Assembly (NCBI GenBank): GCA_030615625.1
Contig: JAUWYX010000002.1
Span: 82,722-146,721, forward strand
Reading direction: 5' to 3'
Source: Dehalococcoidia bacterium
Lineage (GTDB): Bacteria; Chloroflexota; Dehalococcoidia; GIF9; AB-539-J10
Length of the DNA stretch: 64,000 nt
A program made the position numbers and the translations under genes. Under the pieces are notes generated by a model. The model searched no databases, was not told where the DNA came from, and saw only the letters and a list, made by a program, of their open reading frames with translations. Below, one piece after another: positions 46,750-64,000 of the stretch (its first letter is position 1; each line of letters begins with the position of its first letter).

Positions 46750-46927
46750 CAGATCAGAACTGCAAATCCCCCGTGGTTTGGCTCTGCCGATGGTTTCGCA
46801 AAATCAAACTATCCTTACCGGGTCGACATCTATAGTCCAGCCCCGCGGCAAAGTGAGCCGGGATAACATCCGAGTTGAGTCAGGGCCGCGGAGGAAGAGT
46901 TGCCAGCGATACCGGCCCCTGGCCCTG
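46750..46927. repeat. Element 2 copy (degenerate duplicate of the priA 3' end plus downstream sequence)
   Basis: CAGAACTGCAAATCCCCCGTGGTTTGGCTCTGCCGATGGTTTCGCAAAATCAAAC...GGGTCGACATCTATAGTCCAGCCCCGCGGCAAAGTGAGCCGGGATAACATCCGAGTTGAGTCAGGGCCGCGGAGGAAGAGTTGCCAGCGATACC matches 58006-58200 and, from AATCAAACC onward, the native priA 3' end at 61609-61740. Confidence 0.65.
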
Positions 46928-47005
46928 CTCCCTTGAAGTTCTGTACCCTACGCTATGATCCGAAGCCTCAATTCCTACCTTTGAGCTTTGAGGCGTTCGA
47001 TGTGC

Positions 47006-48118
47006 TCAAATCCCATCCAGCCGGTGAGACACCCTCTCCTCCGTTATCCCCAGTTTGGCGGCAATTTCCTTCTTCTCCAGCCCAGCTTTCTTCAACCTGA
47101 ATATCTCCTTTGTCTGTTTTCCCTTCTCTTCCTTTCTGCCAGCTATTTCCTTTATGTCAAAGATGTGCCCTATCGCTTTTGTCTCTATAAGCTTCTTCTC
47201 TTCCATGCCGGCAAAGACCTTCTCGCCCGCTTCAGTCCGGATTATCACTGTTGACCACCCCTCGGCGGAGCCATCGCTGCCGATGGCGATATCGGCCAGG
47301 TCAACAGCGAAATCCCGGCAAACCAGGCAATGCCTGGGGACACAGCTCTTGACCTCGGTTATGGGCAAAGACAGCTTCTTCCCGCCGGCATATATGTTGA
47401 ACTCATCGGAAATATCCAGCTTATCTACCTGGTTGATATCCACCCCCTTTGCTCTGACTTTCTCTGCTATACCGGCATATTCGTAGTTTTCGCGGCAGAA
47501 CAGTCCTACGGTAAGTTTCACCGGTGATGCCAGAGGTAGGCCTTTGTGCTTCAGGTATCTTATCGACTGTATATGGCACGGGGAACCCACAACGCAGATT
47601 TTGCTCAGTCCGCGGTCAACAACAGCAGCTCGCAACGCCTTCAGCACCGGCACCACGCCGTATTTGGTACCAGCTGCCTGGATAATCTCATCCCTGGTCC
47701 TGGCAATACAGGCTATCGGTGCCCAGCCGTCTCTGCCAACTACCAGTGCCCCGTCTATGACGCCGCTGTCCAGTGCGTACAGAAGTAGCGTGGTTACGAT
47801 TCCACCGTTCTGGCAGGTTCTTTCAATTTCTGTGTCTTTTGTTCTTGCCGTCACCGCACGCCTGTATAGCCCTATTCTTTCCTTTTTTCCCCAGCCGATG
47901 GTGCTGCCCTCTATAGCCTTCATCAGATCGTGCCTGAGCATGTAGCAGGCTTCGTAACAGATACTGCAACCCACGCAATCCATGGTGCGCTTGGTCCGCT
48001 TCGGCTTGCCCTCAACAAACTTGATGTGAAAGCTGGGGCAGGCCAGAATACATGCCCCACATACCGTGCACTCCCCCGTGTCTATTATCTTGGCCTCTAA
48101 ATCTTCATAGCTCGGCAT
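47006..48118 (-). CDS. F420-hydrogenase/dehydrogenase beta-subunit-like (FrhB/FdhB family) FeS-flavoprotein with C-terminal helix-turn-helix
   Basis: N-terminal 2x[4Fe-4S] ferredoxin motifs (CTVCGACILACP, CVGCSICYEACY), a FrhB_FdhB core, and C-terminal KKEIAAKLGITEERVSHRL (HTH-like). The ATG at 48118 is preceded by AGGAG. Confidence 0.55.
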   Translation of the reverse strand: MPSYEDLEAKIIDTGECTVCGACILACPSFHIKFVEGKPKRTKRTMDCVGCSICYEACYMLRHDLMKAIEGSTIGWGKKERIGLYRRAVTARTKDTEIERTCQNGGIVTTLLLYALDSGVIDGALVVGRDGWAPIACIARTRDEIIQAAGTKYGVVPVLKALRAAVVDRGLSKICVVGSPCHIQSIRYLKHKGLPLASPVKLTVGLFCRENYEYAGIAEKVRAKGVDINQVDKLDISDEFNIYAGGKKLSLPITEVKSCVPRHCLVCRDFAVDLADIAIGSDGSAEGWSTVIIRTEAGEKVFAGMEEKKLIETKAIGHIFDIKEIAGRKEEKGKQTKEIFRLKKAGLEKKEIAAKLGITEERVSHRLDGI

Positions 48119-48378
48119 ATATTTATACTCCTGCTTCGGGAATAACAAGCCAGGCTATTTTACCAGACATAGTTTCAGGATGTCAGACTCACCCTGACTC
48201 AGATGTGCACCACGCGATCTTAATAGGCCACAACTACATGTTTGATAAGCACAGCAGAACATGCCCTAGGTGTCTCCTGTTCTCAGGAGCTACACCACAC
48301 AATACGAATCCTGAAGGTCACTCATGGACCGAGGGCACACAGGCAGATGTTCCATACTACACCTAAAAGCTATTCGCT

Positions 48379-50067
48379 CTACTTTAGTTCCCCGCTGGCT
48401 TTCATCCTGGCTATCTCTTCTTCCCTCAATTGCCTCTTGAATAGCTTCAGGGTGACGGTGAGAGGTAGCTCTTCCCTGAACTCAATGAATTTGGGCACGG
48501 CATAAGCTGGCAGCTTCTCCCGGCAGTGACCGATTATCTCTTCGGCTGTCACTTTCCCCCGAGCCTCTTTTTTTAGCCTGATGAAAGCTTTTATCCTTTC
48601 GCTGCCCGGGCGCTCTGGGTCAGGAATCCCAATCGCCACCGCATCGCCAACCGCCGGGTGTTCATACAGAGCGTCGTCAACCAGCCTGGTGTAGACTTTG
48701 AGTCCAGATATATTGGCCATATCCTTGAGCCGGTCTGTGATGTAGAAATAGCCATCCTCTTCCATTCTTACCACATCACCGGTGGGCAGCCAGCCGTCAA
48801 CAAGCCCTTTACCCACCTCAGGCCAATAGCCAATCATTATCTGCGGTCCACGAACCCACAGCTCACCTTCTTGCCCCGGGGCCACCTCCTGACCTGTGTC
48901 CAAGTTTACAATTTTGACATCTGTATCCGGCAAGGGAATGCCTATGGAACCAAACTTTTCGAAAGGCATGAAGCCCGTGATTTTGGAGAAAGATGAAAGG
49001 TTAATGTGTGTACCACCACCGGTTTCGGTTAGCCCATAGGCTTCGGTTACGGGCACACCAGTTTCTTGCCTGAATTTCCGAGCAATCTCGGGAGCCAGCG
49101 CTGCTGTTGTGGAGAAAAACATTGTGGTAATCCTGCCAAGCCCTTGAGCTACAAGCCGTGAGTATTGAGTCGGCACGCAGGCACAGAAAAAGGGGCGATA
49201 CTTCGTCAACATCTGCGCCAGAGTGTCAATGTCTCTCGGGTCGGGAAGCAAGTAACACTTGAGCCCCCAGTAGACACCGAAATGCATAAGTAAGTGACCA
49301 TACGTATGAAAAAGAGGAATGGGGATCATGCCCGAAGCCTTGCCCTTGATTCCAACTTTTAAGGGCTCATATGCCCACGCAGTCTGTATCACTGCCGCTA
49401 TTCGATTATAATGGGTCAACATTACTCCCTTGGGTAAGCCAGTGGCGCCTCCTGTGAATGGTAGGACAGCCAGGTCTTTCATTGGATCGATGTCAACATC
49501 AGGAGGCTTGGGCTCATGGCTGTCTATTAATTCACGGAATTGATATGTGTTTGGTATTTTTTTCAACTCCGGCTCTTCCGATGAATAATCCATGACAGAG
49601 GTGACTATTATGTTCTTGATCTTGGTTCTGTCCTTTATTGAATCTACCGTCTCCAGGGACATCTCGGTGCAGATAACTGTCTCAGCTTCTGATTCACCGA
49701 TCTCGTATGTCAAGTCAGCGGCCTTGTGCATAACGCTGCATGGGACATGGGCTGCCCCGGTTTTCATAATCCCGAAGTCGCTTATCATAAACTGCGGGCA
49801 ATTTGGTAGAACGGTGGCTACTTTGTCGCCTTTCTTAACACCTAAATCAACCAGTGCCGCAGCCAACCTGTCGCTAAGAAGCTTCATCTCGCTATAAAGG
49901 ATTTCTTTCCCCAGATAGAAACAGGCAGCTCTGTCAGGAAACTCAGCCGCAGTGGCATCCAGAAGGCTGTGGGCAGTCATCTTTGGATAAGGTTCTCTTG
50001 TCTGCGGAAGCTTGTACGGCCCCATCTTATATTGCTTTAACCAGGGTTTTTCAGCCATAGCGACCAC
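48379..50067 (-). CDS. AMP-dependent synthetase/ligase (acyl-CoA synthetase)
   Basis: AMP-binding motif FTGGATGLPKGVMLTHYN and the C-terminal ANL superfamily domain. Confidence 0.8.
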   Translation of the reverse strand: MVAMAEKPWLKQYKMGPYKLPQTREPYPKMTAHSLLDATAAEFPDRAACFYLGKEILYSEMKLLSDRLAAALVDLGVKKGDKVATVLPNCPQFMISDFGIMKTGAAHVPCSVMHKAADLTYEIGESEAETVICTEMSLETVDSIKDRTKIKNIIVTSVMDYSSEEPELKKIPNTYQFRELIDSHEPKPPDVDIDPMKDLAVLPFTGGATGLPKGVMLTHYNRIAAVIQTAWAYEPLKVGIKGKASGMIPIPLFHTYGHLLMHFGVYWGLKCYLLPDPRDIDTLAQMLTKYRPFFCACVPTQYSRLVAQGLGRITTMFFSTTAALAPEIARKFRQETGVPVTEAYGLTETGGGTHINLSSFSKITGFMPFEKFGSIGIPLPDTDVKIVNLDTGQEVAPGQEGELWVRGPQIMIGYWPEVGKGLVDGWLPTGDVVRMEEDGYFYITDRLKDMANISGLKVYTRLVDDALYEHPAVGDAVAIGIPDPERPGSERIKAFIRLKKEARGKVTAEEIIGHCREKLPAYAVPKFIEFREELPLTVTLKLFKRQLREEEIARMKASGELK

Positions 50068-50078
50068 GATATCACCCC

Positions 50079-51935
50079 CTATACCTTATCGATTACATAA
50101 TCCAGATTCAGATCCTTGAGCTTTTCCGGCGTTGGCTTTCCGGTCTTTTTGTCCCAGCCGCGGAACTCATAATAGGCATCCAGCGACTGGTCTAATTTTT
50201 TCACCATATGTCCCTGGGCAGCACCCTCAGGTAATGGCTCCTCAAGCAATCGCTTCGGCAGAGTATCATCTGCCCTGGTCAGGCCGTCCCTGACGCTGAA
50301 AGCTCTCGCCAGGTTATAGACCCTCTCCCCGGCTTTTCTGAAATCGTTGACACTAAACTCCCAGCCAACGCAGTTGGCTATCATGTCAACCCAGTCTTCG
50401 GCAGCCAGTGCCATGCCCATGAACTTGCATGTCCCCACGCAATCGAAGACGGTGAGGGCATCTTCGAGGTCTTTGACCACCTTAGCCTCGGCAGGATTTT
50501 CCACAATCCAGTCTTCGATTCGGCTATCTTCAACACACAGGAAAGGAATATCTACGAAGGCTGGCCCTTCAACGTAAGCTGTAATATGGTCGCCGCCGCG
50601 GTTAGCCGTGGCAAATGCCAGACCGCATATCTTGGCTGCCCTAGGGTCATAAGCCGGCAACTCCAGCCCTTTGACGTGCATGGCAAACCTTTCCGCGCCC
50701 TTGTCCAGCTTCGCCGCTACTCTCTTAGTCCCTTCAGCCAGCAGGTCACCAATACCTTCCCTTTTGGCTATCTTGTGTATGAGCTGAATGACAACATCTG
50801 GCTCACCGAATTTCATCTCCAGCCCGTCGGTATCAGCTTTGGTCAATATCCCTTTTTCATAGCACTCTATGGCAAAGGCTATAGTGCTCCCGGTAGAGAC
50901 TACATCCAGCCCGTAGTCATCGCACAAGTTATGTGCCAGTGTCACTGCCTCAAGGTTCTCCAGCGCGCACATGGCACCAAAGGCGCCGATTGTTTCATAT
51001 TCCGGCCCTTCACCCTTACAGGCATAAGGACCGCTCTTCACCACACTTACCCTGCAGCAGCTAATGGGACAGGCGTAGCAATGCTTCCTGTCCACCAAGA
51101 GCGTGCTTTCCAGCGTGATTCCACTTATTTTGTCTATATCCGGCACAACGCCGGTCTGCCAGTTCCTGGTAGGAAACCCTCCCCTGACGTTTACCAAATC
51201 GGTAACCATGGCCGTCCCGTAGGTCTCGAGAGTAATCTTCAGCAGGCTTTCATTAACCAGGTCATAGTTCCTCTTCGAGATTTGGCTGAAAGCATCTTTG
51301 TTGGCTATTTTAATCTCCTGTGTCCCTCTGGCAGCCACTGCCTTCAGACGTTTCGACCCCATTACTGTCCCAACACCACATCTCCCGGCAGGCCGGTGAA
51401 CATCATTGAAAATACCGGCATATCTGACTAAGTTCTCACCAGCTATGCCAATGCAGGCAACATTGAAGTCCTCACCCAGTTCTTCTCTAATTAGCCTGTA
51501 TGTTTCACCAACACCTTTGCCCCAGAGGTGCTTGGCGTCTCTGAGTTCGACTTTGCCGTCATCTATTACCAGGTAGACCGGCTTGGGTGATATACCTTCG
51601 AAGATAATCCCGTCGAAACCTGAGTTTTTCAGGTAGACTCCCCAGCTACCCCCCGAGTTCGCCTCTGCCCAGAAACCGGTTAGAGGCGACTTGGTAACTA
51701 CACAATATCTTCCGGCGCTTGGTGATTCTGTGCCGGTCAAGGGCCCGGTCATAAAAATAAGCTTATTGTCGGGTCCAAGTGGGTCAGTGCCTTTGGACAC
51801 TTCGTCGAAAAGGTATTTTGTTGCCAGTCCGCTCCCTCCCAGGAACATCTTGCAGTCATCCTCTTTAAGAGCCTCTTCTGATACCTTGCCGTTTGTTAAA
51901 TCAACCCTGAGTATCTGTCCCATGTAACCGAACAT
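50079..51935 (-). CDS. Tungsten-containing aldehyde:ferredoxin oxidoreductase (AOR family)
   Basis: MFGYMGQILRVDLTNGKV N-terminus, AOR_N plus pterin-binding domains, and Cys ligands for the 4Fe-4S cluster. The ATG at 51935 follows GGAGGA. Confidence 0.85.
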   Translation of the reverse strand: MFGYMGQILRVDLTNGKVSEEALKEDDCKMFLGGSGLATKYLFDEVSKGTDPLGPDNKLIFMTGPLTGTESPSAGRYCVVTKSPLTGFWAEANSGGSWGVYLKNSGFDGIIFEGISPKPVYLVIDDGKVELRDAKHLWGKGVGETYRLIREELGEDFNVACIGIAGENLVRYAGIFNDVHRPAGRCGVGTVMGSKRLKAVAARGTQEIKIANKDAFSQISKRNYDLVNESLLKITLETYGTAMVTDLVNVRGGFPTRNWQTGVVPDIDKISGITLESTLLVDRKHCYACPISCCRVSVVKSGPYACKGEGPEYETIGAFGAMCALENLEAVTLAHNLCDDYGLDVVSTGSTIAFAIECYEKGILTKADTDGLEMKFGEPDVVIQLIHKIAKREGIGDLLAEGTKRVAAKLDKGAERFAMHVKGLELPAYDPRAAKICGLAFATANRGGDHITAYVEGPAFVDIPFLCVEDSRIEDWIVENPAEAKVVKDLEDALTVFDCVGTCKFMGMALAAEDWVDMIANCVGWEFSVNDFRKAGERVYNLARAFSVRDGLTRADDTLPKRLLEEPLPEGAAQGHMVKKLDQSLDAYYEFRGWDKKTGKPTPEKLKDLNLDYVIDKV

Positions 51936-51985
51936 GTTTGCTCCTCCTTTTTTTTTGCTCGCATGTGCTCCTAAACTGGTCTTTT

Positions 51986-52249
51986 TCACTCTTCGAATTT
52001 TGTCTTGACAGCATCCATTCGCCGCACACGGTGGATTGTCTCAAACGGCGTCTGCGTCAAGTGGAGGACTCGTCTCAATACCTTCTCATCAGGTGCCTCC
52101 CACTCACAGAAGTGCTTGTTTCCAGCGAAATCGCAGTAACTACACCTCCAGGAGACGCCTTTTGGCATGTAATTGGGTGCGGCCTTAGCGCGTGCAATCA
52201 ACTCCTCCTCAGTGAACGGTGCCTTATGAACAACTATAAAACGTGGCAT
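51986..52249 (-). CDS. DUF4242-family small protein
   Basis: MPRFIVVHKAPFTEEEL...HFCEWEAPDEKVLRRVLH resembles DUF4242 (MPxFMDVH...FCLxEAPD...VH). Confidence 0.45.
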   Translation of the reverse strand: MPRFIVVHKAPFTEEELIARAKAAPNYMPKGVSWRCSYCDFAGNKHFCEWEAPDEKVLRRVLHLTQTPFETIHRVRRMDAVKTKFEE

Positions 52250-52309
52250 TTTTACCTCCTGATGGTTCCCCCGAAATTTCTTGAAGTTAGCACAGTGGCT
52301 CCAGTAAAG

Positions 52310-53476
52310 CTAAAAATCTATACTCTTTCCTTCGTATGTGTAGCCCAAGAACCTCTCGGTCTCTGCAACATTAGGTATTCTGGCAGAAACAATCAGCGAG
52401 CCATCGGCCATGATATTGTCTATTAGCTTCTCCATCGCCTTGTTGAAGCTATTCAATGAAATACCCGTTTCTTTAATGCTCAGCGGTTGATTGATATTAT
52501 GAGCCAGTCCTCGTATAGCTTGTGTTAAAATTGTTGCTGCCCTTTTCCCTTTAGGTACTTCAAGTTTGATAGCGTAAGCTATCTCTGCCCAGAGTTCTTC
52601 GCGAACTTCACCGATGAACTCGATGGTGTAGGGCAGAAACAGCCCAACCGCTCTGCCATGGGGAATATGGAATAGGGCGCCAAGGGAATGACCTGCAGCA
52701 TGGGCCATAGATGACAGCGCGTTGATGAAGCCGATACCTGCGATACAGCCTGCATTATGCATCTTTTCCCTGGCTTCCATGTCATTCCCATCCTTCACCA
52801 CTCTAGGAAGATACTGGAAAACAAGCTGTATAGCTTTGATACAGAGACCGTCGGTGAAGTCGTTCTTCCAGGTACAGGTATATCCTTCGACTGCGTGAGT
52901 TAGTGCGTCCATGCCTGTGTCTGCTGTGATTTGTGGAGGCATTGCCCGTGCCAGTTCTGGGTCTACAATAGCAATGTCTGGGACGATCTCCCGGTTAATA
53001 AGGCTCAGCTTCCTTTGGTCAGCTGTATCGGTAAGCACTACCGCAAAAGTTGCCTCGGCACCCGTGCCCGAAGTTGTGGCAACGCAAACAAGCTTGCACT
53101 TGGCACCCAGACCCAAATCCGAAATAAATGGGTTTATTTCCTCTGGCTTTATGTCTGGCCTTTCATATTGCACCCTCATCGCCTTAGCTGCGTCCATAAC
53201 CGAGCCCCCACCTACAGCAACAACCAAATCCGGTCCATACTGGTTCATCAGAGCCACACCCTTTTGTACCGTCTGCAGCGACGGGTCGGGCTCAACCTCA
53301 TCAAAGACAGTGGCTTGTATCCCCGCTTGGGAAAGCTGTTCTTTGACTTTGTCAACGAAACCCAGACTCACAATGTTCTTATCGGTAACGATGAACGCCG
53401 ATTTCCCCTTCAATTGAGCCAGGTGGCTCAGTGCATCTTGTCCAAAAACTACCTCAGGAACCACGAAGTACCACAT
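52310..53476 (-). CDS. Iron-containing alcohol dehydrogenase
   Basis: Fe-ADH family motifs (GGGSVMDAAKAM, the metal-binding His cluster HxxxH...H); 388 aa. Confidence 0.85.
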   Translation of the reverse strand: MWYFVVPEVVFGQDALSHLAQLKGKSAFIVTDKNIVSLGFVDKVKEQLSQAGIQATVFDEVEPDPSLQTVQKGVALMNQYGPDLVVAVGGGSVMDAAKAMRVQYERPDIKPEEINPFISDLGLGAKCKLVCVATTSGTGAEATFAVVLTDTADQRKLSLINREIVPDIAIVDPELARAMPPQITADTGMDALTHAVEGYTCTWKNDFTDGLCIKAIQLVFQYLPRVVKDGNDMEAREKMHNAGCIAGIGFINALSSMAHAAGHSLGALFHIPHGRAVGLFLPYTIEFIGEVREELWAEIAYAIKLEVPKGKRAATILTQAIRGLAHNINQPLSIKETGISLNSFNKAMEKLIDNIMADGSLIVSARIPNVAETERFLGYTYEGKSIDF

Positions 53477-53578
53477 AGCTACCTCCTCTTCATAAACTGG
53501 TTATATTTCTATAACAACATTATGTCAGCAAACAACAGCTATTATCAGCCTGCTTGTGGCTTCACACTATATAAATGT

Positions 53579-53989
53579 CTAATCAGGGAATACGGTCTCA
53601 AATGCAGTCATGCAGTTGACCAGTTCCACGGCTGCCCTGGGCATCTTCATGATTTGGGCCATATCACCTTTGACCTTGATCTTGCCGGTCATCATAGACT
53701 GGACTGGGTCAACCTTTTTGTCCAGTATTTGCTTCATGTTGGTGAACGAGCCGAATATGCGGTATTTCGGAGACTTCTCATTTTCGTCCGTAATCACGCG
53801 AGCCTCGCGGCATTCACCATGCCACAGGTCAAGGTACATGATGTCCCTGTGTTTGTACGATGCATCGGGCTCCACGATAATGTATATGTCTCCTTCCCAC
53901 TTCTTAGCTGCCTCTTTGTATGCCTGGCTGGTTTCCAGCGCCTTTTTCAGTGCATCCACCCACTCTTGTGATCCAAACAAAATAGCCAT
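53579..53989 (-). CDS. SCP2 sterol-carrier-like domain protein
   Basis: C-terminal MTGKIKVKGDMAQIMKM matches the SCP2 signature (GKLKxxGNMxLAMKL). Confidence 0.55.
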   Translation of the reverse strand: MAILFGSQEWVDALKKALETSQAYKEAAKKWEGDIYIIVEPDASYKHRDIMYLDLWHGECREARVITDENEKSPKYRIFGSFTNMKQILDKKVDPVQSMMTGKIKVKGDMAQIMKMPRAAVELVNCMTAFETVFPD

Positions 53990-54126
53990 TTTAACCTCCT
54001 CCTGATGAATTTCGGCTGTAAATTATACCATTTTTTACCCACTCAAGACGTGTTACATAGACACTACCACCCCCTCCCTGAAAATCGATCACTTATATCC
54101 AGCAGTCAGTGACGACGCAGACTACG

Positions 54127-54531
54127 CTATTTCAGTACCATTATCTTTGAAATCTTGAGCAATAGCAAAGGATTGCCCCCAGACTTCAGCTTGCCGGTGA
54201 GCATAGCCACTATAGGGCTGAGTTGGCCAGAGCTAATATGTGCTAGATTTTCAAACCCAGCTTCCATATATGCCGTCGGCTTGGCTACGGCATCATTCTG
54301 CAGCTCAAGTTTGCCTTGATCGAGATGTAGTGTAACGGCTACACCTGACGTCGACTCCTTGATGACTACACTTCCTTTCACCTTCTCAACGCTCTTATAC
54401 TTCTTAGGGTCCTTGAGGTTTGTGTCCATAATCTCCTTGAGCATTACACCCAGACCGTTAAGTTCTTTCCCCTCCTTCACCTTGACTTCAGTCACCTTCA
54501 ATATACCTCCCTTCAAGGATGTCTCCTGCAA
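54127..54531 (-). CDS. SCP2-like domain protein (second copy, divergent)
   Basis: C-terminal LTGKLKSGGNPLLLLKI. Same size class as the neighbouring gene. Confidence 0.4.
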   Translation of the reverse strand: MQETSLKGGILKVTEVKVKEGKELNGLGVMLKEIMDTNLKDPKKYKSVEKVKGSVVIKESTSGVAVTLHLDQGKLELQNDAVAKPTAYMEAGFENLAHISSGQLSPIVAMLTGKLKSGGNPLLLLKISKIMVLK

Positions 54532-54603
54532 AATTTCTTCACCGATTTATCCCTTCATGGTATATTATATTATAATTATCATGACTATTGTAAGGGTATT
54601 TTT

Positions 54604-55768: not shown

Positions 55769-55899
55769 CAGCCGAAGAATATCTGATTGTACCTTGTACC
55801 CTTCCGAGTAATTTGGCATACGCCCTCTTTCCTCACAGAGAAAGTTTGCTTTGTCAATCTCCTGATTTGTGTAGTTGCCTGATTTATCAGGCTTTGCCC

Positions 55900-56135: not shown

Positions 56136-56409
56136 GGCTCCATAAGAATAGTCTTAAAAAAATAGTATTTAAGACTAATATCAAGGTGGGTGGTCAAGTG
56201 TGTGCGTCAGGGGTTTGTTATAGTTCCTACGATGCTCCTAAGAGCACATACAGCTATGTGAACGAGGCTCTTTTTCCCTGCCATGGCAAAATCAATCCTC
56301 CCTTTCGAAACCTAAAATCATTGCCAGGCATAGCCGAGGCAATCCCTTCTCTCTTGAGTCGAAGGATAAGGATTTTGGAAAAACCGAACTGTTACTAAGG
56401 AGTTGAAGT

Positions 56410-57993
56410 ATGAAGATAATACTTAGCTCGAGGAGACGCCACTACGTGAAAAGACTTGGCATCTTTTTGATTACGGTAGCCTTAATTGTGGGAATAGCAG
56501 GCTGTGAGGGTAGTTGTAGTTCTACTCCTGTTCAATACGATCTCACCACCTCCAGTACTGCAGGCGGCGACGTAGTTATCTCCGGTGAGGGAACTTATGC
56601 CGATGGAGCAATAGTCACCATGGAGGCCGTGGCGGATGAGTGTTACGAGTTCGTCAACTGGACCGGCGCAGACGTCGCCGACCCCTACTCTCCCATAACC
56701 ACCATCACTATGGATGAAGCTAAGAGTATAACCGCCAATTTTGCCCTGCTGAGCTACGACCTTACAGCAGACAGCACAGATGGTGGCGAGGTAACCACTC
56801 CTGGCGAGGGGACTTTTACCTATGACTGCGGCACGGTGGTTGACCTGGTGGCGACTCCAGATGCTTACTACGGGTTTGTCGAGTGGACCGGCGATGTGGA
56901 CACCATCGCCGATGTTTATGCTGCCTCAACCGCCATCACCATGAACGGCGACTATTCTATCACCGCTAACTTCATCCTGTTCGCCGGAGGGAACGGAACA
57001 GCCGAGAATCCCTATCAGATTGCGGATTGGTACCACCTTGATAATGTCCGCAATTATCTAAGCAGCTACTTTATCGTCATAAACGACCTCGATTCCAACT
57101 CTATTGGCTATACAGAGCTGGCGAGTGAGACAAGCCACGAAGGAAAAGGCTGGGAGCCAATTGGAAGTATTGCTGTAAATGACGCATTCGTCGGCAGCTT
57201 CGACGGTCAGGGGTACGAGATATGCGACCTGTTTATCGACCGCCCTGACGAATCTGATGTGGGGCTCTTCGGTGTTGTTGAAGAATTAGGGGTCATCGAG
57301 AATGTCGGCGTAGTAGTAAACGGCAATGTGACTGGCCAAGACGATGTTGGCGTTCTGGTGGGAAAGAATGAGGGCACTGTAAGCAACTCCTGTTCCACCG
57401 GCAATGTGACTGGCAACCTCAATGTTGGCGGTCTGGTGGGATGGAATTTTAAGGGCACTGTCACCGACACCTATTCCACCGGCAATGTAACTGGCCTAGA
57501 CAATGTTGGCGGTCTGGTGGGATGGAATACGGGCACTATGAGCAACTCCTATTCCACGGGCGGCGTGACTGGCAATACGAGTGTTGGCGGTCTGACCGGA
57601 AAGAATGGCGGCACTGCGAGCAACTCCTATGCCACCGGCAGCGTGACTGGTGATGATAATGTCGGTGGTCTGGTGGGAAAGAATGACAACACTGGCACTG
57701 TTAGCAACTCCTATTCCACTGGCAGTGTGACTGGCAATACGCATGTTGGCGGTCTGATGGGAAGGAATCAGGGCACTGAGAGCAACTCCTTCTGGGACAC
57801 CGAGACCAGCGGACAAGCTACTTCAGATGGAGGGGACGGCAAGACCACCGCGGAAATGCAGGACATCACCACCTTCTCAGGAGCAGGCTGGGACATAATC
57901 ACAGTCGCCAATCCTGGCACGCGCAACCCTTCCTACATCTGGAATATCGTTAACACTGTGACTTATCCATTCCTGAGCTGGCAGCCTGTTTAA
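56410..57993 (+). CDS. Lipoprotein with two InlB-B-type repeats and tandem GLUG-motif repeats
   Basis: Lipobox LIVGIAGC. Two ~80-aa repeats (FVNWTGADV...ITANF and FVEWTGDV...ITANF). It also has at least six GLUG-type repeats (VGGLVGxNxGTxSNSYSTGxVTG). Confidence 0.65.
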   Translation: MKIILSSRRRHYVKRLGIFLITVALIVGIAGCEGSCSSTPVQYDLTTSSTAGGDVVISGEGTYADGAIVTMEAVADECYEFVNWTGADVADPYSPITTITMDEAKSITANFALLSYDLTADSTDGGEVTTPGEGTFTYDCGTVVDLVATPDAYYGFVEWTGDVDTIADVYAASTAITMNGDYSITANFILFAGGNGTAENPYQIADWYHLDNVRNYLSSYFIVINDLDSNSIGYTELASETSHEGKGWEPIGSIAVNDAFVGSFDGQGYEICDLFIDRPDESDVGLFGVVEELGVIENVGVVVNGNVTGQDDVGVLVGKNEGTVSNSCSTGNVTGNLNVGGLVGWNFKGTVTDTYSTGNVTGLDNVGGLVGWNTGTMSNSYSTGGVTGNTSVGGLTGKNGGTASNSYATGSVTGDDNVGGLVGKNDNTGTVSNSYSTGSVTGNTHVGGLMGRNQGTESNSFWDTETSGQATSDGGDGKTTAEMQDITTFSGAGWDIITVANPGTRNPSYIWNIVNTVTYPFLSWQPV

Positions 57994-58005
57994 TACAACT
58001 AGCAC

Positions 58006-58342
58006 TCAGACCAGAACTGCAAATTCCCCGTGGTTGGGCTCTGCCGATGGTTTCGCAAAATCAAACCATACCCACCGGGTCGACATCTATAGTCCAGCCC
58101 CGCGGCAAAGTGAGCCGGGATAACATCCGAGTTGGGCTAGGACCACGGAGGAAGAGTTGCCAGCGATACCTGCCCCTGGCTCTGAAGGCAAAAGTAGGCA
58201 CAGGACCAATTACATTGAAATCAATCATGTCCTTTCTTGCCTTTTCATCAAGAATTAGACGATACACCCTCTCTGCCTCACGGCGACATAACTCTTCATT
58301 GGTGTGGCTATAAACCAGGCGGACTAACTGGCTAAAAGGGGG
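58006..58342 (-). pseudogene. Element 2 copy: duplicated 3' fragment of priA (last ~94 codons) plus downstream sequence
   Basis: The reverse strand encodes PPFSQLVRLVYSHTNEELCRREAERVYRLILDEKARKDMIDFNVIGPVPTFAFRARGRYRWQLFLRGPSPTRMLSRLTLPRGWTIDVDPVGMV*. This is ~90% identical to the native PriA C-terminus at 61611-61892. The ORF 58061..58267 is part of it. Confidence 0.7.
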
Positions 58343-58378
58343 GGAGCAGCTCGTAATGATGGAAGGGGAGCATAAACA

Positions 58379-58408
58379 GAGAGCCGAGGCTCAAAAGCCT
58401 CGGCTCTC
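58379..58408. repeat. Palindromic hairpin element (13-bp perfect stem GAGAGCCGAGGCT / AGCCTCGGCTCTC, loop CAAA)
   Basis: Second copy of the GAGCCGAGGCT palindrome seen at 43690-43714. It sits between element 2 and the acylase stop. Confidence 0.5.
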
Positions 58409-58484
58409 CATACCAGCCCTGGCTAGCAGTCGGAATGGGCTACACCCACCAGACTTTCGAATCCTGTGGCCGTAGCTTTAATTT

Positions 58485-61001
58485 CTAGAACACCCTCCTC
58501 CATGTTTCCACTGCCTCGATATCCTTACTGCGGAATAACATGTGCTTGTATTGCCAGGCTGCGTACAGCGGCAATTGGTCGAACGCATAAGGGCTGGGAC
58601 CTAGAAAACTCACAAACCCGCTCTGTCCGGGCGGAATCACACTTACCGCATGTGGTGGTGGTCCCTTCGCTCCTGCACCTGGTTTTGCATGTGACGGTGG
58701 CTTTGAGGGCATTTCGGCGATGTGATTGTAGGTGCCGCGGTTCATATAGGGATGGCTGGCCGGGTCCCCTGGTAGAGCTCCCTGCTCGTCATAAGTCTGC
58801 ATGCTCACCGGGGTAAGCCAGGTGGACATATCTTCGCCATATGCGAGCTTCAGGTCATCAATAGCATCTTTCAGCGCGCCGACAATCAGTGCATCCAGTG
58901 CGGCGTCAGAGGGATACCCAGGGTAGTTGAGGGAGCCATCGTCCCTGAAGACGCGGAGTAAGAGGCTGGGCCTACCCTTTATCTGCCCGATTATGTCGGG
59001 TGAAAGGATACCGGCAAACACTGCGGGAACGATTCTGTCATACCAGGAGTTAAAGATGGTCAGACCAGCATGGTCGTACGTGGGATTGGGGTCAGTAGGC
59101 CATTTGGGTGACACAAGGTCGACATAGCTAACAGGAAGAGGTGTTGCGGTAGCCCAGGCTAAGAGGTACCCTAGTGCTCCCTCGACCTCTGGGTCAGTGG
59201 TTGTTCCCAAGTAGGCTGTGACCACGGCTATCAGATCCGCGACGAAGTTCATTCCGTTGATATTGTTGTATCCCGCAATCTGGTTAATCATGTTCATGTC
59301 GTCGAATGTCACGTCTCCCCTTGGAGCGTAATAATCAGCTAGAACATTCATCAGAATCTGTACACGGTGACCCTCGCCCCAGCCAAAATCTGATTCTGCA
59401 TAGGGCCAGTCGGCGATTGGCTTGTTGTTCCAGTTGGTAAGCCAGCCCTGCTCGGGGTTGATGACCCTGGGCATCTCTTCAGGGCCTGTGACACGAACCC
59501 ACTCTTGTGTTCCGTCACCCATCAAGGGCAACCTGCGATCAGCATCTACCGGCTTTACCGGGAAGCGCCCAGCATGCCAGTAGCCTATGTTCCCTTCCCT
59601 GTCAGCCCAGCAGAAGTTGTGGGAAGGCCATATCAGTTCCACTGCCGCCTCAAATTCCTCAATGTTCGTTGCCTCCTGGAAGAGCTGCCAACCTTGCTCG
59701 GCACCAATCTCATTCCTGTAGAAGGGGGTATGCAGGGTAATAGCCGTGCCCGCAGCTATGCCGACGATAGGACCATAGTGCGAGCGATAAAAGGTCTCCG
59801 TCACCGGTCCCGGTAGCCCCTGAACCTGGAATGTCTCTGTTCTAACTTCCATGTCACGCCAGTTACCTTCGTACAAATACTGTAATGGGTTCTCAGGATT
59901 CAGCACCAGGATGCGTATGTCTATGACATCGGAAGAACCGGTGGTTGACGTCCAGGCGCCATGTTCGCTGACACCAATCAAAATGAATGGACCGGATCCG
60001 GGGAATGCCATACCCTGGGCACTGATTCCCGCGCCATGCAACCCTATCTCGTAAACGATTTGCGGAATCGTATGCCCCATCTGCGGTCCTCCCAGTTCAA
60101 GTGCGTTCCCAGTTGCCGACAATTCCGGACTGATAAGCACGGCGTTGCTTCCAAATTTTGTCGGCATACCCAGCGACTCAAGCGTTTCATCCTGAGCTGC
60201 CCGCGACTCCTCATACTGCTCAAGGAGTCCGCTGACGCCATCGGGGAAGTCGAACGAAGGCATACTCAAGAAAGTCGCTCCATAAGCCTCGTCGGCTATG
60301 GTCACAGGTGCTCCAGGGTCATTCAGTGGGAAGAGCTCGTTCCAGATGAGCCCTCCACTCGCTGGGCCATGCATTCCCTGAAGCGTAAGTAGAGCTTCGT
60401 AGAAAGCGCCCTCGTTGCCGCCTGTTCCGCCAAATTGCCAGGCCATCAGCACTGTAACGGCTACCACATCTGCGACGCTAAAGGGCTCAAGTTTATCAAC
60501 TAGCTCCATCCCGATATATTCAACAGGTATAAGGGATAGGTCGCCCTGAGCTGCTGCAGCTAAGGCCTCGGAAATGTAAAGATTTATGCCGTCTACGTAA
60601 GCCTCAATCATCGGCTTGAGATGTTCGTAGCCTTCGCCCGGGTCCCACTCCTCATAAATTTGCAGTAACTCGTCCTGGTTATACCACAACGCTCTCATTT
60701 CCATATCCTGCGGGAGGACGCTTGGGCCTAGTAATTCAGCAAGACGTCCGGAAGCCATTCTCCTGAAGACGTCGGCCTGCCAGAGTCTGTCTTGAGCCAT
60801 GGCATAGCCAGTTCCAAAGCCCAAACCCTCTTTCGTATCCGAGAAAACATGGGGAACTCCATAATCGTCTCTTATGATCCGGAGGTAGCGCCAAGGATGC
60901 CCATCAGCCGTACCGGCGGCCACGCCAGGTAATGGAAAGGTGCTGATTACGAGCACAACGATCAATAGGACTGCTAATATCGATATCTTGGCTTTAGACA
61001 T
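58485..61001 (-). CDS. Secreted penicillin amidase (peptidase S45, Ntn-hydrolase) family protein
   Basis: Signal peptide. YLRIIRDDYGVPHVFSDTKEGLGFGTGYAMAQDRLWQADVFRRMASGRLAELLG matches the S45 N-terminal signature (RDxxGVPHI...GYxxAQDRLxQM...RRxAxGxLSE); 838 aa. Confidence 0.8.
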   Translation of the reverse strand: MSKAKISILAVLLIVVLVISTFPLPGVAAGTADGHPWRYLRIIRDDYGVPHVFSDTKEGLGFGTGYAMAQDRLWQADVFRRMASGRLAELLGPSVLPQDMEMRALWYNQDELLQIYEEWDPGEGYEHLKPMIEAYVDGINLYISEALAAAAQGDLSLIPVEYIGMELVDKLEPFSVADVVAVTVLMAWQFGGTGGNEGAFYEALLTLQGMHGPASGGLIWNELFPLNDPGAPVTIADEAYGATFLSMPSFDFPDGVSGLLEQYEESRAAQDETLESLGMPTKFGSNAVLISPELSATGNALELGGPQMGHTIPQIVYEIGLHGAGISAQGMAFPGSGPFILIGVSEHGAWTSTTGSSDVIDIRILVLNPENPLQYLYEGNWRDMEVRTETFQVQGLPGPVTETFYRSHYGPIVGIAAGTAITLHTPFYRNEIGAEQGWQLFQEATNIEEFEAAVELIWPSHNFCWADREGNIGYWHAGRFPVKPVDADRRLPLMGDGTQEWVRVTGPEEMPRVINPEQGWLTNWNNKPIADWPYAESDFGWGEGHRVQILMNVLADYYAPRGDVTFDDMNMINQIAGYNNINGMNFVADLIAVVTAYLGTTTDPEVEGALGYLLAWATATPLPVSYVDLVSPKWPTDPNPTYDHAGLTIFNSWYDRIVPAVFAGILSPDIIGQIKGRPSLLLRVFRDDGSLNYPGYPSDAALDALIVGALKDAIDDLKLAYGEDMSTWLTPVSMQTYDEQGALPGDPASHPYMNRGTYNHIAEMPSKPPSHAKPGAGAKGPPPHAVSVIPPGQSGFVSFLGPSPYAFDQLPLYAAWQYKHMLFRSKDIEAVETWRRVF

Positions 61002-61610
61002 TTTCCATCACTCTCCTTTCCTTTTGTAATAGTTCGCCCTGAAACGTAGTTTAGCCTCTCTGAAATCTCAGTCCATAGTACATCACCCCCTCGCTGTCAA
61101 GCCTCCATCACCAGTCATCACCCCAACCAGCACAGGCACGAGCGTAATCCCAAAGATTCTGGCTGTCACCTGCCTTCTTCCCATTGTCGTACATCCCTTG
61201 CTCATTGTTTTACATTTATCCTCCTCCCTCGACAGAGCTTCAGCGTGAGCTCAGTCGCACGCCCCGGACAGGTTCTTATCCTTCTTCCCTCAAGCGGAAG
61301 GGGATTGCTTGGGCTATGCCTGGCATGGCCTGGGATTTCGAATGGGAGGATAGATTTTGCCGTGGCTGGGAAAAAAGAGCCGAGACTACATGTCTATATG
61401 CGCTCAACTGAATCTGATGAGGACTAAAGTAACCCCTGACACACACTCTTGACCCCCACTTTTGTATTATTTTATAGTACCACCATCAACAGAAATTTGT
61501 CAACAGGTCTTAACCATGTGGATAAGTAGAAAGCAGCCATATACTCGGCAATAAGAAGAACAAAATGGGAAAGCCCAATATTGATTATCCCCTGAGAAAT
61601 GTCTGTAGAA

Positions 61611-64000
61611 TCAAACCATCCCTACGGGGTCGACATCTATAGTCCAGCCCCGCGGCAAAGTGAACCGGGATAACATCCGGGTTGAGTCAGGGCCACGGAG
61701 GAAGAGTTGCCAGCGATACCTGCCCCTGGCCCTGAAGGCAAAAGCGGGCACAGGACCAATTACATTGAAATCAATCATGTCCTCTCTTGCCCTTTCATCA
61801 AGAATTAGACGATGCACCCTCTCTGCCTCACAGCGACATAGCTCCTCATTGGTGTGGCTATAAACCAGGCGGACTAACTGGCTAAAAGGGGGATAATTGT
61901 ATCGGCGGCGATAATCTATTTCTTTATAATAAAAACCAAGATAATCATGCCTGGCAGCAGCTTCAATAATGTAGTTATCGGGGGAGTAAGTCTGGATGAT
62001 GACCTTCCCCGCTTTAACCCCACGCCCCGCCCTGCCAGCTACCTGACACAGGAGTTGAAAAGTGCGCTCGCTACTTCGGAAATCAGGAAAATTAAGGCCG
62101 GTATCGGCACTGATTATCCCGGCCAGGGTCACTTGAGGCAGATCTAATCCTTTGGCTATCATCTGGGTGCCAATAAGCACATCTGCCTTGTGGTCACGAA
62201 AATTCTTTAACAACTCCTCATGAGCATATCTCCTGGTAATCACATCTCTGTCCCAGCGAAGCAATCTTGCTTCAGGGAAGAAATGCCTTATCTCTTCTTC
62301 TACCCTCTGCGTGCCAATGCCCAGAAACCTCAGATAACGCCGAGAACACCGGGGGCAGCTTTGGGGTGCTGGAACAGAATAACGACAGCGATGGCAAATT
62401 AGCCTTTTCTCCGCTGAATGGTAAGTAAGGGCTATGGAGCAGCGGGGGCAGCGAAAGACAAAGCCACAGTTACGACATCGAACAAAGGTAGCTGTGCCCC
62501 GACGGTTAAGGAAAAGAATTATCTGCTCGCCCTGCGCCAAAGTTTCTTTCATGGCAGCTAACAAGGAACGGCTAAACAAGCTTGTGTTTCCGGCTTTAAG
62601 TTCTTCCCTCAAATCCACTATGCTTACTTCGGGGAGAGGGGAATAACCACGAGGAGTAATTCTTTCCTTTAGCTCTACAAGATAATATTCGCCTTGCTGT
62701 GCCTTATGGAAACTGCCAATATCAGGGGTAGCACTGCCCAGGATGACAACAGCATCGCTGAGTTGAGCCAATTCAATGGCCACGTCGCGGGCATGATAGC
62801 GAGGTGACTTATCTTCTTGTTTGTATGTCCATTCATGCTCTTCATCGATAATGATAAGACCGAGGTTGGCCAGGGGCGCAAATAATGCGCTCCTCGGTCC
62901 GATGACGACGTCGCAGTTTCCCTCCACTATCCATTGCCACTCGTCGAACTGTTCTCCCAAGGAAAGGCCACTATGCAGTACTGCCACACGCCCGGGGAAG
63001 CGATCAGCAAATCTCTCTACTGTTTGTTGGGTCAAAGCGATTTCAGGGATAAGACAAATGCCTCGCTTACCGGCGGCAATAACCTGAGCTAATGCCCGCA
63101 GGTAAATCTCAGTCTTTCCGCTGCCAGTAACGCCAAAAAGGAGAAAAACCGGTGGACTGCTAGATTGCCTTGCTTCCTTCACAATGACATCTTGGATCGA
63201 TTCCCAAGCAGTTTGTTGAGATGAGGTGAGAATCGGAGCTGGAGAAGTTGTGAGGCTGAGGTGAGATAAGGGGTCACGTCTTACCCTGAGCCTTTCCACT
63301 GAGACCAAATGGCGGCTCTCCAGGGCTTTGATAGTGGCAAGAGAGCTATTGAGACGTTTCCTCAGTTCGCTAATTGAAATAGGTTGAGTCTGCCCGGTCA
63401 GAAATTCTAATAGTTCTGCCTGTTTATAAGCTCTAGACTTATCCAGGCGAGCTTTCTCCGCTTCAATTTCTTCTCTGTCAGCTATTAACTTAATATAAGG
63501 AAGCGTTTTGGGCTTTATCTTTGCCTTTTCCAATTCCAGAGTTTTTGCAATTAGCTGACGGTCTAGCAACTGGTCGGTAATTTGCTTGGCTTTTCTTTTG
63601 CCAATTGCTTTCTCCAGCTCAGCCAAGCTTGTCTTCCCCTCCCTTCTCATAATGTGCAGGATTTGCCTTTGCTCGGGTGTCAGGGGCAAATCTACTTGGG
63701 AATCTGTTAGCTGAAAGCAAGTAATAGCCCGTCTCTCAAATCCCGGAGGCAGCATTAAAGCCAGGGCATCGAAAAGGGGGGCAAAATAGTGTTCGCTTAT
63801 CCACTGGGCAAGCTTTATTTGTATCGGGGAAAGCAAAGGAAAATCAGTAACAATGCCAGCTATTTCCTTAGTTTCTTCAACCGATGGCTCGTCTGATAAT
63901 CGGAGCACAATCCCCTGAATAACCCTGGAGCCAAAGGGCACCCATACTGCTTGCCCGGCACTAATATTGAGCCCTGGCGGTATGGCATAGCAAAAAGTTG
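61611..64000 (-). CDS. priA: Primosomal protein N' (PriA helicase); N-terminus extends beyond the window end
   Basis: VPFGSRVIQGIV N-terminal motif, Walker A GVTGSGKTE, DEAH-like DEEHE, and Cys4 zinc-binding CRNCGFVFRCPRCS...CHRCRY. The frame remains open upstream of 63941 (...AIPPGLNISAGQAVWVPFGSR) to the window edge. Its 3' ~285 bp form the native copy of element 2. Confidence 0.9.
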   Translation of the reverse strand, partial: TFCYAIPPGLNISAGQAVWVPFGSRVIQGIVLRLSDEPSVEETKEIAGIVTDFPLLSPIQIKLAQWISEHYFAPLFDALALMLPPGFERRAITCFQLTDSQVDLPLTPEQRQILHIMRREGKTSLAELEKAIGKRKAKQITDQLLDRQLIAKTLELEKAKIKPKTLPYIKLIADREEIEAEKARLDKSRAYKQAELLEFLTGQTQPISISELRKRLNSSLATIKALESRHLVSVERLRVRRDPLSHLSLTTSPAPILTSSQQTAWESIQDVIVKEARQSSSPPVFLLFGVTGSGKTEIYLRALAQVIAAGKRGICLIPEIALTQQTVERFADRFPGRVAVLHSGLSLGEQFDEWQWIVEGNCDVVIGPRSALFAPLANLGLIIIDEEHEWTYKQEDKSPRYHARDVAIELAQLSDAVVILGSATPDIGSFHKAQQGEYYLVELKERITPRGYSPLPEVSIVDLREELKAGNTSLFSRSLLAAMKETLAQGEQIILFLNRRGTATFVRCRNCGFVFRCPRCSIALTYHSAEKRLICHRCRYSVPAPQSCPRCSRRYLRFLGIGTQRVEEEIRHFFPEARLLRWDRDVITRRYAHEELLKNFRDHKADVLIGTQMIAKGLDLPQVTLAGIISADTGLNFPDFRSSERTFQLLCQVAGRAGRGVKAGKVIIQTYSPDNYIIEAAARHDYLGFYYKEIDYRRRYNYPPFSQLVRLVYSHTNEELCRCEAERVHRLILDERAREDMIDFNVIGPVPAFAFRARGRYRWQLFLRGPDSTRMLSRFTLPRGWTIDVDPVGMV

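Follow-up and report, generated by a model that had tools for sequence, protein, structure and literature searches.

The gap between the convergent genes priA and recR of an uncultured Dehalococcoidia host is a hotspot for added metabolic gene blocks, each of which leaves a cut-off priA end behind. The pattern looks like ordinary recombination rather than a new integrase-driven mobile element, and we consider it probable that this recombination-driven hotspot for accessory genes is fed by ‘3′ end displacement’, in which incoming DNA pushes the old gene tail and its neighbours outward. The window analysed here is a 64 kb stretch of a metagenome assembly (MAG); it was compared with about 130 related Dehalococcoidia loci (labelled L001, L004 etc.), with about 10 kb inspected on each side.

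The priA–recR interval

Among the related loci, the interval between priA and recR ranges from zero, with the two genes abutting tail to tail (L010, L027 and L053), to more than 20 kb. The building blocks that recur are the amidase, a surface protein, the 9 kb block from ThiS to FrhB, HpaB–DUF169 and further surface proteins. They follow the order priA-Amid-LP3-T in the window (Table 1), and other relatives show priA-HpaB-DUF169-recR, priA-LP-LP-recR, priA-T-H or priA-Amid-T, among others. The DUF169/HpaB-like genes of cassette H directly follow priA in L015, L019, L041 and L054, and LP1–LP2 is missing in L015 and L041, where DUF169 adjoins recR. An earlier note on this DNA had suggested that the whole interval is a mosaic accessory region; this is supported. 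In some relatives recR and priA lie directly side by side, and the blocks are variably present among the related genomes.

Table 1. Features of the window between recR and priA.
Feature	Position	Strand	Remarks
recR	38478–39077	+	Core gene at the other hotspot boundary; preceded by dnaX and ybaB
LP1–LP2 surface-protein cassette	39121–43990	+	Bracketed by d1 (39121–39245) and d2 (43840–43990)
Cassette H	44120–46605	+	DUF169 and HpaB-like genes
d3 + 89-nt spacer	46568–46745	+	Overlaps last 38 nt of HpaB
Arm C	46746–46801	−	56 nt, after copy C; from repeat comparison and arm probe
P″ (copy C)	46802–46927	−	Orphan priA tail, 126 nt, open frame
T cassette	46928–55906	− overall; ThiF and ThiS genes on +	9 kb block
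d4	55907–55996	+	Copy of HpaB-tail/d element; family D6, 93%
LP3 cassette	55997–58002	+	Promoter 56107–56134, leader, surface-protein gene 56410–57993
Arm B	58003–58058	−	56 nt, after copy B; native post-priA-stop sequence in amidase-less relatives
P′ (copy B)	58059–58342	−	Orphan 5′-truncated priA tail, 284 nt, open frame
Amidase 3′ region	58343–58484	−	Conserved terminator-like hairpin (~58379–58409)
Penicillin amidase (S45) gene	58485–61001	−	Pfam PF01804, E = 5e-127
ds1	61002–61608	−	Amidase cassette's own upstream region; starts 2 nt after priA stop codon
P(native)	61609–61892	−	Reference copy of repeat; last 94 priA codon positions + 2 nt
priA (primosomal protein N′)	61611–64000, 5′ end runs past window edge	−	Pfam PriA domains

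Three copies of the priA tail

The homologues of priA in relatives are 810 aa long and 90–100% identical. Its reference tail comprises 93 residues and the stop codon (61611–61613, minus strand). A 25-nt core probe finds exactly three sites, in the native tail and in copies B and C, where shuffled sequences lead us to expect none; the three same-orientation copies described in the earlier note are real and far beyond chance. Copy B differs from the native tail at 18 positions over 284 nt (~94% identity) and copy C at seven over 126 nt, and the priA frame is open to the stop codon in both, as had been claimed for the copy at 58006–58342. Copy C is indeed the shorter of the two but not the more degenerate, its identity to the native tail over the shared 126 nt being 94.4%, compared with 92.1% for copy B. 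The approximately 50 bp downstream that had been counted with the native copy do not belong to the repeat, since the three-way homology stops 2 nt beyond the priA stop codon.

The orphan tails are allele-like: 17 of the 18 differences in copy B, and six of the seven in copy C, match functional priA alleles from other genomes. The priA of the window is itself a recombination mosaic, with its first ~1350 nt 97–100% identical to L007 and the remainder nearest to L054, L008 and L009.

The arm and the HpaB-tail repeat

A 22-nt probe from the arm finds exactly two sites (46780–46801 and 58037–58058). The earlier note had taken this sequence, shared by the two distal copies, for an element-borne attP-like arm. 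We rejected this candidate: the arm is of native chromosomal origin and follows the priA stop codon in six amidase-less relatives (L005, L007, L041, L015, L054 and L043). Copy B and its arm line up with native priA ends in L041 (93.7%), L007, L054, L043 and L005. The stretch from copy C through its arm, the 89 nt and d to HpaB is colinear with the native priA–HpaB junction of genomes that do not carry T (L041, L054, L015 and L019), at 88.6%, 85.6% and 85.1% over ~360 nt in the first three. The outer repeat is also longer than first described and reaches the HpaB tail: 46568–46657 matches 55907–55996 at 93% and takes in the final 38 nt of HpaB. In full, the duplicated unit therefore consists of HpaB tail, d, 89 nt, arm and priA tail, measuring 360 nt at locus C and interrupted at locus B by the surface-protein cassette. 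The first 38 nt of d4 are an orphan HpaB 3′ end, and d4 marks the priA-proximal edge of the 9 kb block. The repeats are not the product of a single local tandem duplication, in line with the earlier view that simple tandem duplication does not explain them.

The cassettes and their junctions

The inner pair of tails brackets the S45 amidase gene alone, and the gene content assigned to the outer bracket was likewise found as described: between copies B and C lie a Flg_new_2/GLUG surface protein (LP3), whose gene is convergent with priA, and the T genes (ThiS, ThiF, two SCP2, Fe-ADH, SCO4226-like, AOR, AMP ligase and FrhB-like). The ds1 region holds a sigma70-like promoter (61503–61474) and a leader of ~250 nt that is common to the LP3 gene, and the same sequence is found after priA, or after a fragment of it, in L001, L018, L028, L034, L072 and L080. 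At the other edge of the cassette, the amidase 3′ region ends at a novel junction with priA position ~−284. T terminates in a 50-nt linker (46928–46977) that meets priA at position −126; a direct join to position −257 also occurs, starting from the same end point of T. At least 15 independent contigs from different samples show an identical T/priA(−126) junction, which is therefore real and inherited. Many independent assemblies carry orphan priA tails at the edges of their cassettes.

Could the contig simply concatenate strain variants of one locus through their common priA-tail sequence? The sequence does come from a MAG, several strain variants of the locus coexist in related samples, and strain switching during assembly could mimic the mosaic priA. 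However, each novel junction, taken singly, recurs in independent assemblies: the T/P″ and d/T junctions in L060 (97.8%), L061, L071 and others, the Amid/P′ junction at −284 in L072 and the P-arm-LP3 arrangement, which is native, in L005. In addition, the longest exact run common to the tail copies is shorter than 50 nt, and a graph mis-join cannot yield the junction of the amidase terminator with an internal priA position. We regard such an artefact as very improbable.

The arrangement might also have arisen locally, without gene transfer, from an ancestral array priA-Amid-LP-T-H-LP-recR in which unequal crossing-over or replication slippage duplicated the priA/HpaB tail-to-tail junction, followed by lineage-specific deletions between the repeats. 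T and the amidase adjoin priA even in distant relatives (L030, L042, L045 and L122, with priA 73–80% identical), T divergence tracks genome divergence, and deletion between direct repeats would explain the T-less and amidase-less genomes as well as the repeat-free L001. Nevertheless, such a history leaves unexplained what placed a cassette between two tails at the outset, since the segments that were duplicated do not stand side by side as copies with the same content. Nor does it account for the amidase allele, which is 76% identical to L001 at the nucleotide level between flanks of ~94% (breakpoint near 61512) and lies closer to L080 (81% amino-acid identity to L080/L081) than to the otherwise closest relative. 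The differing cassette orders (LP-d/P(−33)-Amid/P′-T in L072; priA-T/P″-Amid/P‴-HpaB in L080 and L081), the mosaic priA and the orphans carrying the states of functional alleles from other lineages are left equally unaccounted for. We consider a purely local history unlikely.

Search for a recombinase

No gene for an integrase, resolvase or transposase turned up among the window ORFs of at least 140 aa, in agreement with the earlier note. Among 20 unknown ORFs sampled from the related loci the only exception was an unrelated IS6-type gene in L098, and none of the viral contigs searched carries a priA tail. Nothing in these searches points to a site-specific recombinase acting at priA, as the earlier note had envisaged. 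Integrase-less, cis-mobilisable cassettes could still have entered an att site in the priA tail through a recombinase encoded elsewhere or since lost, the orphan tails being attR scars. Serial same-orientation 3′ ends of a conserved gene do flank variably present cargo; the amidase cassette changes position yet stays between priA tails in every order seen, with one edge exactly at the stop codon; and the ssrA islands of the related Dehalococcoides form tandem arrays, some without integration modules (PMC3146451). Against this, there is no common, sharply bounded core: the repeats measure 126–360 nt and both boundaries differ from event to event, with starts at about −284, −257, −126, −95 and −33 and three different ends (at the priA stop codon, ~20 nt past it or 234 nt past it). 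Such heterogeneous truncation points are expected from illegitimate joins and secondary deletions. The chromosomal arm and a cargo GC content like that of the remaining window also argue against integration, as does the T junction, which originated in one or two events and then passed down vertically instead of forming repeatedly. Synonymous sites at the end of priA show no added conservation of the kind that would hint at an embedded recombination site, and the tail contains no conserved non-coding signal. The same genes without repeats, named beforehand as a contrary outcome, were found in part: in L001 and L004, which share the genes priA-amidase-ThiS...AMP ligase, the amidase/ThiS junction is free of repeats. 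Taken together, site-specific integration at priA appears distinctly improbable. What stands of the earlier interpretation is that displaced priA 3′ ends, nested within one another, mark off accessory blocks in a mosaic; the attP-like arm, the recombinase and the sharp core are not supported.

Probable displacement of the priA 3′ end

The anatomy of the locus, the native origin of the arm, the varying content and order of cassettes among relatives, the orthologous junctions in independent assemblies, the mosaic priA and the allele-like orphans are seen directly, as is the lack of recombinase genes among the ORFs examined, and displacement is the reading that we draw from these footprints. A related donor genome with different genes downstream of priA would pair homologously within priA, carrying its own priA tail and downstream cassette into the recipient, and the far end of the donor DNA would be joined illegitimately inside the recipient priA tail. 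A circularised fragment with a priA tail, entering by a single Campbell-type crossover, would be equivalent. By either route priA would stay intact, and the recipient's old tail and downstream neighbours would be pushed outward as an orphan. In the window, one event may have brought in the 9 kb ThiS-to-FrhB block, orphaning copy C with arm, 89 nt, d and HpaB, and another the amidase cassette, orphaning copy B with arm and LP3; we infer this direction and timing, as well as the enzymology (homologous plus illegitimate recombination). The orphan tails could then serve as portable homology for RecA-type recombination or gene conversion, and tail-to-tail exchange within or between genomes would delete, re-insert and reorder cassettes while keeping some orphans similar to functional alleles.

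Two observations sit less easily with displacement. The two priA joins made from one T end point could hint at a defined element end, and the amidase edge always falls exactly at the priA stop codon, as a site-specific model would likewise predict. Where its frequency has been determined, homology-facilitated illegitimate recombination has, moreover, proved rare (PMC5361080, PMC3240628), which counts against displacement. In its favour, an equivalent scheme has been put forward for rhs and T6SS effector–immunity arrays (PMC5361080).

Comparison with known systems

The closest parallels are the C-terminal or 3′ end displacement arrays of rhs, CDI and T6SS effector–immunity loci (Kirchberger et al., 2017, PMC5361080, citing Jackson et al., 2009, for rhs). 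There, as here, a row of orphaned, 5′-truncated 3′ fragments lies downstream of an intact gene, all in the same orientation and each retaining its former downstream neighbour; a homologous anchor in the conserved part and an illegitimate join are proposed, with no integrase, and ordinary homologous recombination later exchanges the arrays. The priA locus differs in having a housekeeping replication-restart helicase as its anchor and in displacing tails that are homologous, not toxin tips that have diversified. Its cargo is made up of cassettes of metabolic or surface-protein genes that have promoters of their own, and the HpaB tail is duplicated as a second gene end.

The Dehalococcoides ssrA islands occur in the same host class (McMurdie et al., 2011, PMC3146451). 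Like SCC-type elements at the rlmH 3′ end, they are tandem islands downstream of a single-copy essential gene, limited by direct repeats of its 3′ end and in some cases devoid of integration genes. Their repeat, however, is fixed at 20 bp, insertion takes place at a defined point and a conserved module for integration encodes the serine recombinases DsiB and DsiA (PMC3146451), whereas the longer priA-tail repeats have variable ends and our searches of the window and sampled ORFs found no recombinase.

The tycheposons and tRNA-flanked genomic islands of Prochlorococcus also occur in streamlined genomes poor in mobile elements, and tycheposon hotspots, as at priA, hold arrays of cargo with partial target-gene copies in between. 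Tycheposons carry tyrosine recombinase genes and mostly target tRNA genes; no tyrosine recombinase gene was found among the ORFs examined at the priA locus. Finally, hotspots of horizontal transfer flanked by core genes and devoid of mobility genes have variable accessory content between two conserved genes, as here, and homologous recombination in the flanks is credited with their turnover. Unlike such hotspots in general, the priA–recR locus retains physical footprints in the form of orphan gene tails, from which the order of events can be read.

Anatomy of the priA-tail repeats

The priA gene lies on the minus strand, with its stop codon at 61611-61613 and its 5′ end outside the window (810 residues in relatives). 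Repeat finding, alignment and probe searches confirmed the claim of the earlier note that its 3′ end occurs in three copies of the same orientation, namely the native one and two orphan, 5′-truncated tails, referred to as copies B and C. Probing the 64 kb returned exactly three cores and two arms, with a chance expectation of none, the arm being a stretch of 56 nt that follows each orphan. The native copy lacks it, other sequence beginning 2 nt past the priA stop codon. The priA reading frame is open in both B and C, and the small ORFs inside the fragments are relics and do not count as genes. The gene content between the copies matches the first description, but the outer repeat turned out to be longer than had been seen, as it extends into the 3′ end of the HpaB gene. 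The 9-kb block from ThiS to FrhB (hereafter T) is bracketed by a 360-nt unit, which is the entire HpaB/priA tail-to-tail junction and which is split on the B side by a surface-protein cassette. Repeats end at the priA stop codon, about 20 nt past it or 234 nt past it. A simple tandem duplication was rejected, since the copies bracket different genes and are unequal in length and allele content.

Features of the priA locus and of other regions discussed in the text (window positions)
Feature	Position	Orientation	Remarks
Native priA 3′ end	61609-61892	minus	Reference copy
Copy B	58059-58342	as native	284 nt, 18 differences from native
Copy C	46802-46927	as native	126 nt, 7 differences from native
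56-nt arm	58003-58058 (after B); 46746-46801 (after C)		Same arm after both orphans
Extension of the outer repeat	46568-46657; 55907-55996		93% match; takes in the final 38 nt of HpaB
Small ORFs inside fragments (examples)	58047-58313; 58061-58267; 46742-46936
d elements	39121-39245; 43840-43990; 46568-46657; 55907-56059	direct	Following recR; ahead of DUF169; at the stop codon of HpaB; following ThiS
LP3 promoter	56107-56134	plus	TTGACA-16-TATAAT; region 56107-56409
Amidase promoter	61503-61474	minus	TTGACA-18-TACTAT; region 61002-61503
Tandem repeats in the LP3 gene	57321-57768		Five repeats of 78-84 nt
Low-GC patch	12000-15000		GC 0.42-0.44 versus about 0.49
DUF3800 ORF	12481-13458		In the low-GC patch
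Unannotated ORF	13589-14293		234 aa; in the low-GC patch

The arm had been read as an attP-like sequence borne by an element, a reading that is refuted by the related Dehalococcoidia loci (numbered L001-L139). In relatives without the amidase, the arm lies directly after the native priA stop codon: the order is priA-arm-surface protein-d-HpaB-DUF169-recR in L005, priA-arm-89 nt-d-ThiS... in L007 and priA-arm-89 nt-d-HpaB in L041, L015, L019 and L054, where d is a repeated intergenic element. Moreover, the 340-nt B locus aligns over its full length with native priA ends (up to 93.7%), and so does the 360-nt C locus with native priA-HpaB junctions (84-89%). Because of this position and these alignments, the arm is old chromosomal flank and not an element-borne attP arm, and each orphan tail is still in front of the former downstream neighbour of priA. 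As in a displacement array, an intact priA is followed by same-orientation truncated orphans that are colinear with the native priA-downstream regions of relatives. This anatomy probably results from 3′ end displacement, whereby donor DNA anchored in priA brings in its own tail and cargo and the old tail is pushed outward as an orphan.

The priA-recR interval in related loci

The source organism is an uncultured member of the Dehalococcoidia with many close metagenome relatives, and we surveyed 52 loci around priA in species-representative genomes together with 80 loci from metagenomes, centred on the FrhB-like gene. The genes priA and recR face each other tail to tail, and their contiguity in relatives, a check proposed in the earlier note, was found in L010, L027 and L053, where the genes abut or overlap. 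Elsewhere the interval holds subsets of the amidase cassette (Amid; S45 penicillin amidase), the surface-protein cassettes LP3 and LP2-LP1, T and H (HpaB-DUF169), in a mostly constant order with exceptions. The window reads priA-Amid-LP3-T-H. L080 and L081 show the reverse (priA-T, tail(-126)-Amid, tail(about -95)-arm-89-d-H, where negative numbers are priA positions counted from the 3′ end), the amidase cassette lying downstream of T between two orphan tails (L080 11216-14900, L081 7465-11140). L072 has three orphan tails and its amidase behind an LP cassette (LP-d, tail(-33)-Amid, tail-T-tail-H); here a third junction type (positions 1-300) joins LP-upstream/d sequence to the final ~33 nt of priA, after which comes the upstream region of the amidase. 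L001 and L004 read priA-Amid-T, with neither a tail nor LP3 separating Amid from T, and in L061, a 417-kb contig of the same strain, a tail is present after T. In the window priA is intact, and across L001-L139 the cassettes are variably present; a restored target gene and a variable island are what the locus shares with integrase-mediated genomic islands at the 3′ end of conserved genes. The view of nested, displaced tails at a hotspot holds.

Junctions and the search for a recombinase

In at least 15 contigs, which come from different samples and span FrhB identities of 76-96%, the T tail meets priA(-126) in one and the same sequence, so this junction is real and inherited. An assembly artefact as the source of the array is extremely improbable. 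In a second form of the junction, the same T end lies directly at priA -257 (L087, L088, L097 and L100). The 50-nt linker between T and priA -126 was considered as decayed priA and rejected, its similarity to priA -257..-126 being no higher than that of shuffles. The amidase/priA(-284) junction also occurs in L072. The novel junctions are unique and inherited, and small indels at the joints obscure any microhomology. There are five truncation points (about -284, -257, -126, -95 and -33) and the repeat ends differ as well; the shared, sharply bounded att core that goes with the proposal of site-specific integration scars is therefore absent.

Pfam scans of all window ORFs of at least 140 aa gave housekeeping or metabolic genes and no site-specific recombinase, so the statement that the window has no integrase or transposase stands at this scope. 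Among 20 sampled unknown ORFs from the variable intervals of related loci, nothing was mobility-related except an IS6/IS240-family DDE transposase in L098 (5439-6503), the sole mobility gene among the ORFs examined, which lies between DUF169 and LP genes and not beside a priA tail. Viral contigs were scanned three times for a phage attP, using conserved probes from the priA tail, and gave no match. A functional element or site hidden in the priA tail was rejected, as the 3′ end shows no excess synonymous conservation (where residues are the same, the proportion of identical codons stays at about 0.68-0.72 all along priA and does not increase towards the 3′ end). The GC content of the cassettes is that of their surroundings. 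With no recombinase in the ORFs examined and no common core, integrase-mediated integration at priA is not supported, and a site-specific recombinase acting in trans on the priA tails is quite unlikely. We may wonder whether the priA tail, possibly with the d linker, is a true attachment site that serves a cassette platform with no integrase of its own. Metabolic cassettes with their own promoters would then leave as circles and insert again at whichever tail copy, through either a host recombinase acting in trans or a dedicated homology-dependent pathway. We consider this very unlikely; if true, it would amount to integron-like gene trading for the streamlined, mobile-element-poor Dehalococcoidia.

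Two known architectures were also considered. Integron-type arrays combine an IntI integrase and an attI site with promoterless cassettes that are bounded by attC sites; here no integrase was found, the cassettes have strong promoters of their own and gene tails, rather than attC-like hairpins, serve as linkers. Xer/dif-type (IMEX) integration, considered for the GC-skew sign change near 45 kb, was rejected: IMEX repeats are 28 bp long and are not gene tails, the TTGACATAAT motif within the 89-nt spacer amounts to no more than a weak half-site and resembles a -35 box more closely, and the skew of the window follows gene orientation. For island callers, a repeated gene 3′ end alone does not imply an integrase-driven island.

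Signs of homologous recombination

At 17 of its 18 differences from the native end, copy B has the state found in functional priA alleles of other genomes, as does copy C at six of seven. The orphans look like pieces of working alleles rather than decayed duplicates. The orthologous orphan has decayed to ~74-77% identity in other lineages, near the identity of four-fold degenerate sites, compared with ~97% to the native consensus in the window's lineage, in line with repeated gene conversion or crossing-over that involves functional tails. The priA gene of the window (61611-64000) is itself a mosaic: its first ~1350 aligned nt share 97-100% identity with L007, the nearest sequences thereafter are L054, L008 and L009 (up to 100% in one 150-nt window), and the last ~300 nt have no close match (best 93.5%). 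The amidase allele (58351-60878) shares only 76% nucleotide identity with L001 (12967-15432), while both flanks share ~94%, with a breakpoint ~100 nt past the priA stop codon, and its protein is 81% identical to those of L080/L081 but 68% identical to the one in the closest relative, a pattern suggestive of an allelic replacement of the cassette. The mosaic priA, the allele-like orphans and the divergent amidase are evidence of the homologous exchange within the anchor and of the foreign alleles in the array that are features of a displacement array. A purely local history, in which duplications and deletions within the locus would account for all copies, is unlikely.

Other features of the locus

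Four copies of the d element occur in the window. The first two bracket the LP1-LP2 cassette as the tail units bracket T, and an orphan HpaB 3′ end of 38 nt forms part of the copy at 55907. GTAACAG...TTTCCC motifs surround the LP upstream regions in inverted orientation; an invertible promoter was set aside here because one motif half is merely a stop codon plus d element. The LP3 and amidase genes have strong sigma70-like promoters and a homologous 5′ leader of ~250 nt, possibly a regulatory leader that secreted proteins have in common; it matches no Rfam family and its folding signal is weak (z = -1.4). The only Rfam hit was one tRNA, far from the locus. The LP3 homologue of L005 is much longer (795 versus 527 aa), suggesting variation in repeat number. 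MITE-like "GTCATTGCGAGGAGCGCAGTGACGAAGCAATCTC"-type repeats fill the priA-downstream spacer of L008 (about 3790-3950), and in L001 and L033 the amidase is followed by short repeats related to them. The cumulative GC skew peaks at 44000-46000, where gene orientation switches (minus strand on the priA side, plus strand on the recR side); a stretch of 64 kb does not distinguish a replication terminus from a mere coding-strand effect. Finally, the low-GC patch may be a small acquired islet.

Probable 3′ end displacement at priA

Under 3′ end displacement, DNA of a relative with different downstream genes would be anchored by homology in priA and provide a new priA tail plus cargo, its far end being joined inside the resident tail, either by illegitimate recombination of a linear fragment or by single-crossover integration of a circularised one. 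With little or no spacer between tail-to-tail genes, only insertions that supply or duplicate a gene end would keep both genes intact, which would explain why both the priA and HpaB tails are duplicated. In the L101 form of T, the flanks are 126 nt plus about 20 nt. Most simply, T of the window, L007 and L060, with its full 360-nt junction flanks, would derive from this form via one additional round of circle formation and homologous re-insertion. For the amidase cassette to move between tail copies, tail-tail recombination would suffice.

The locus offers readable footprints of the gain, loss and reordering of metabolic cassettes in an uncultured sediment lineage of the Dehalococcoidia, at one hotspot flanked by core genes. 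An AOR/acyl-CoA-ligase block, the amidase and surface proteins are among these cassettes, and no mobile-element machinery was found at the locus. The orphan priA tails can be used to order acquisitions and to follow strain variants in metagenomes. The kind of process is already known; the literature searched holds no report of priA as the anchor of such an array or as an integration target. The priA array is unlike the Dehalococcoides ssrA islands, whose repeat is a fixed one of 20 bp and which contain a serine-recombinase module (PMC3146451), and resembles the rhs and T6SS effector-immunity arrays, for which a 3′ end displacement mechanism has been proposed (PMC5361080).
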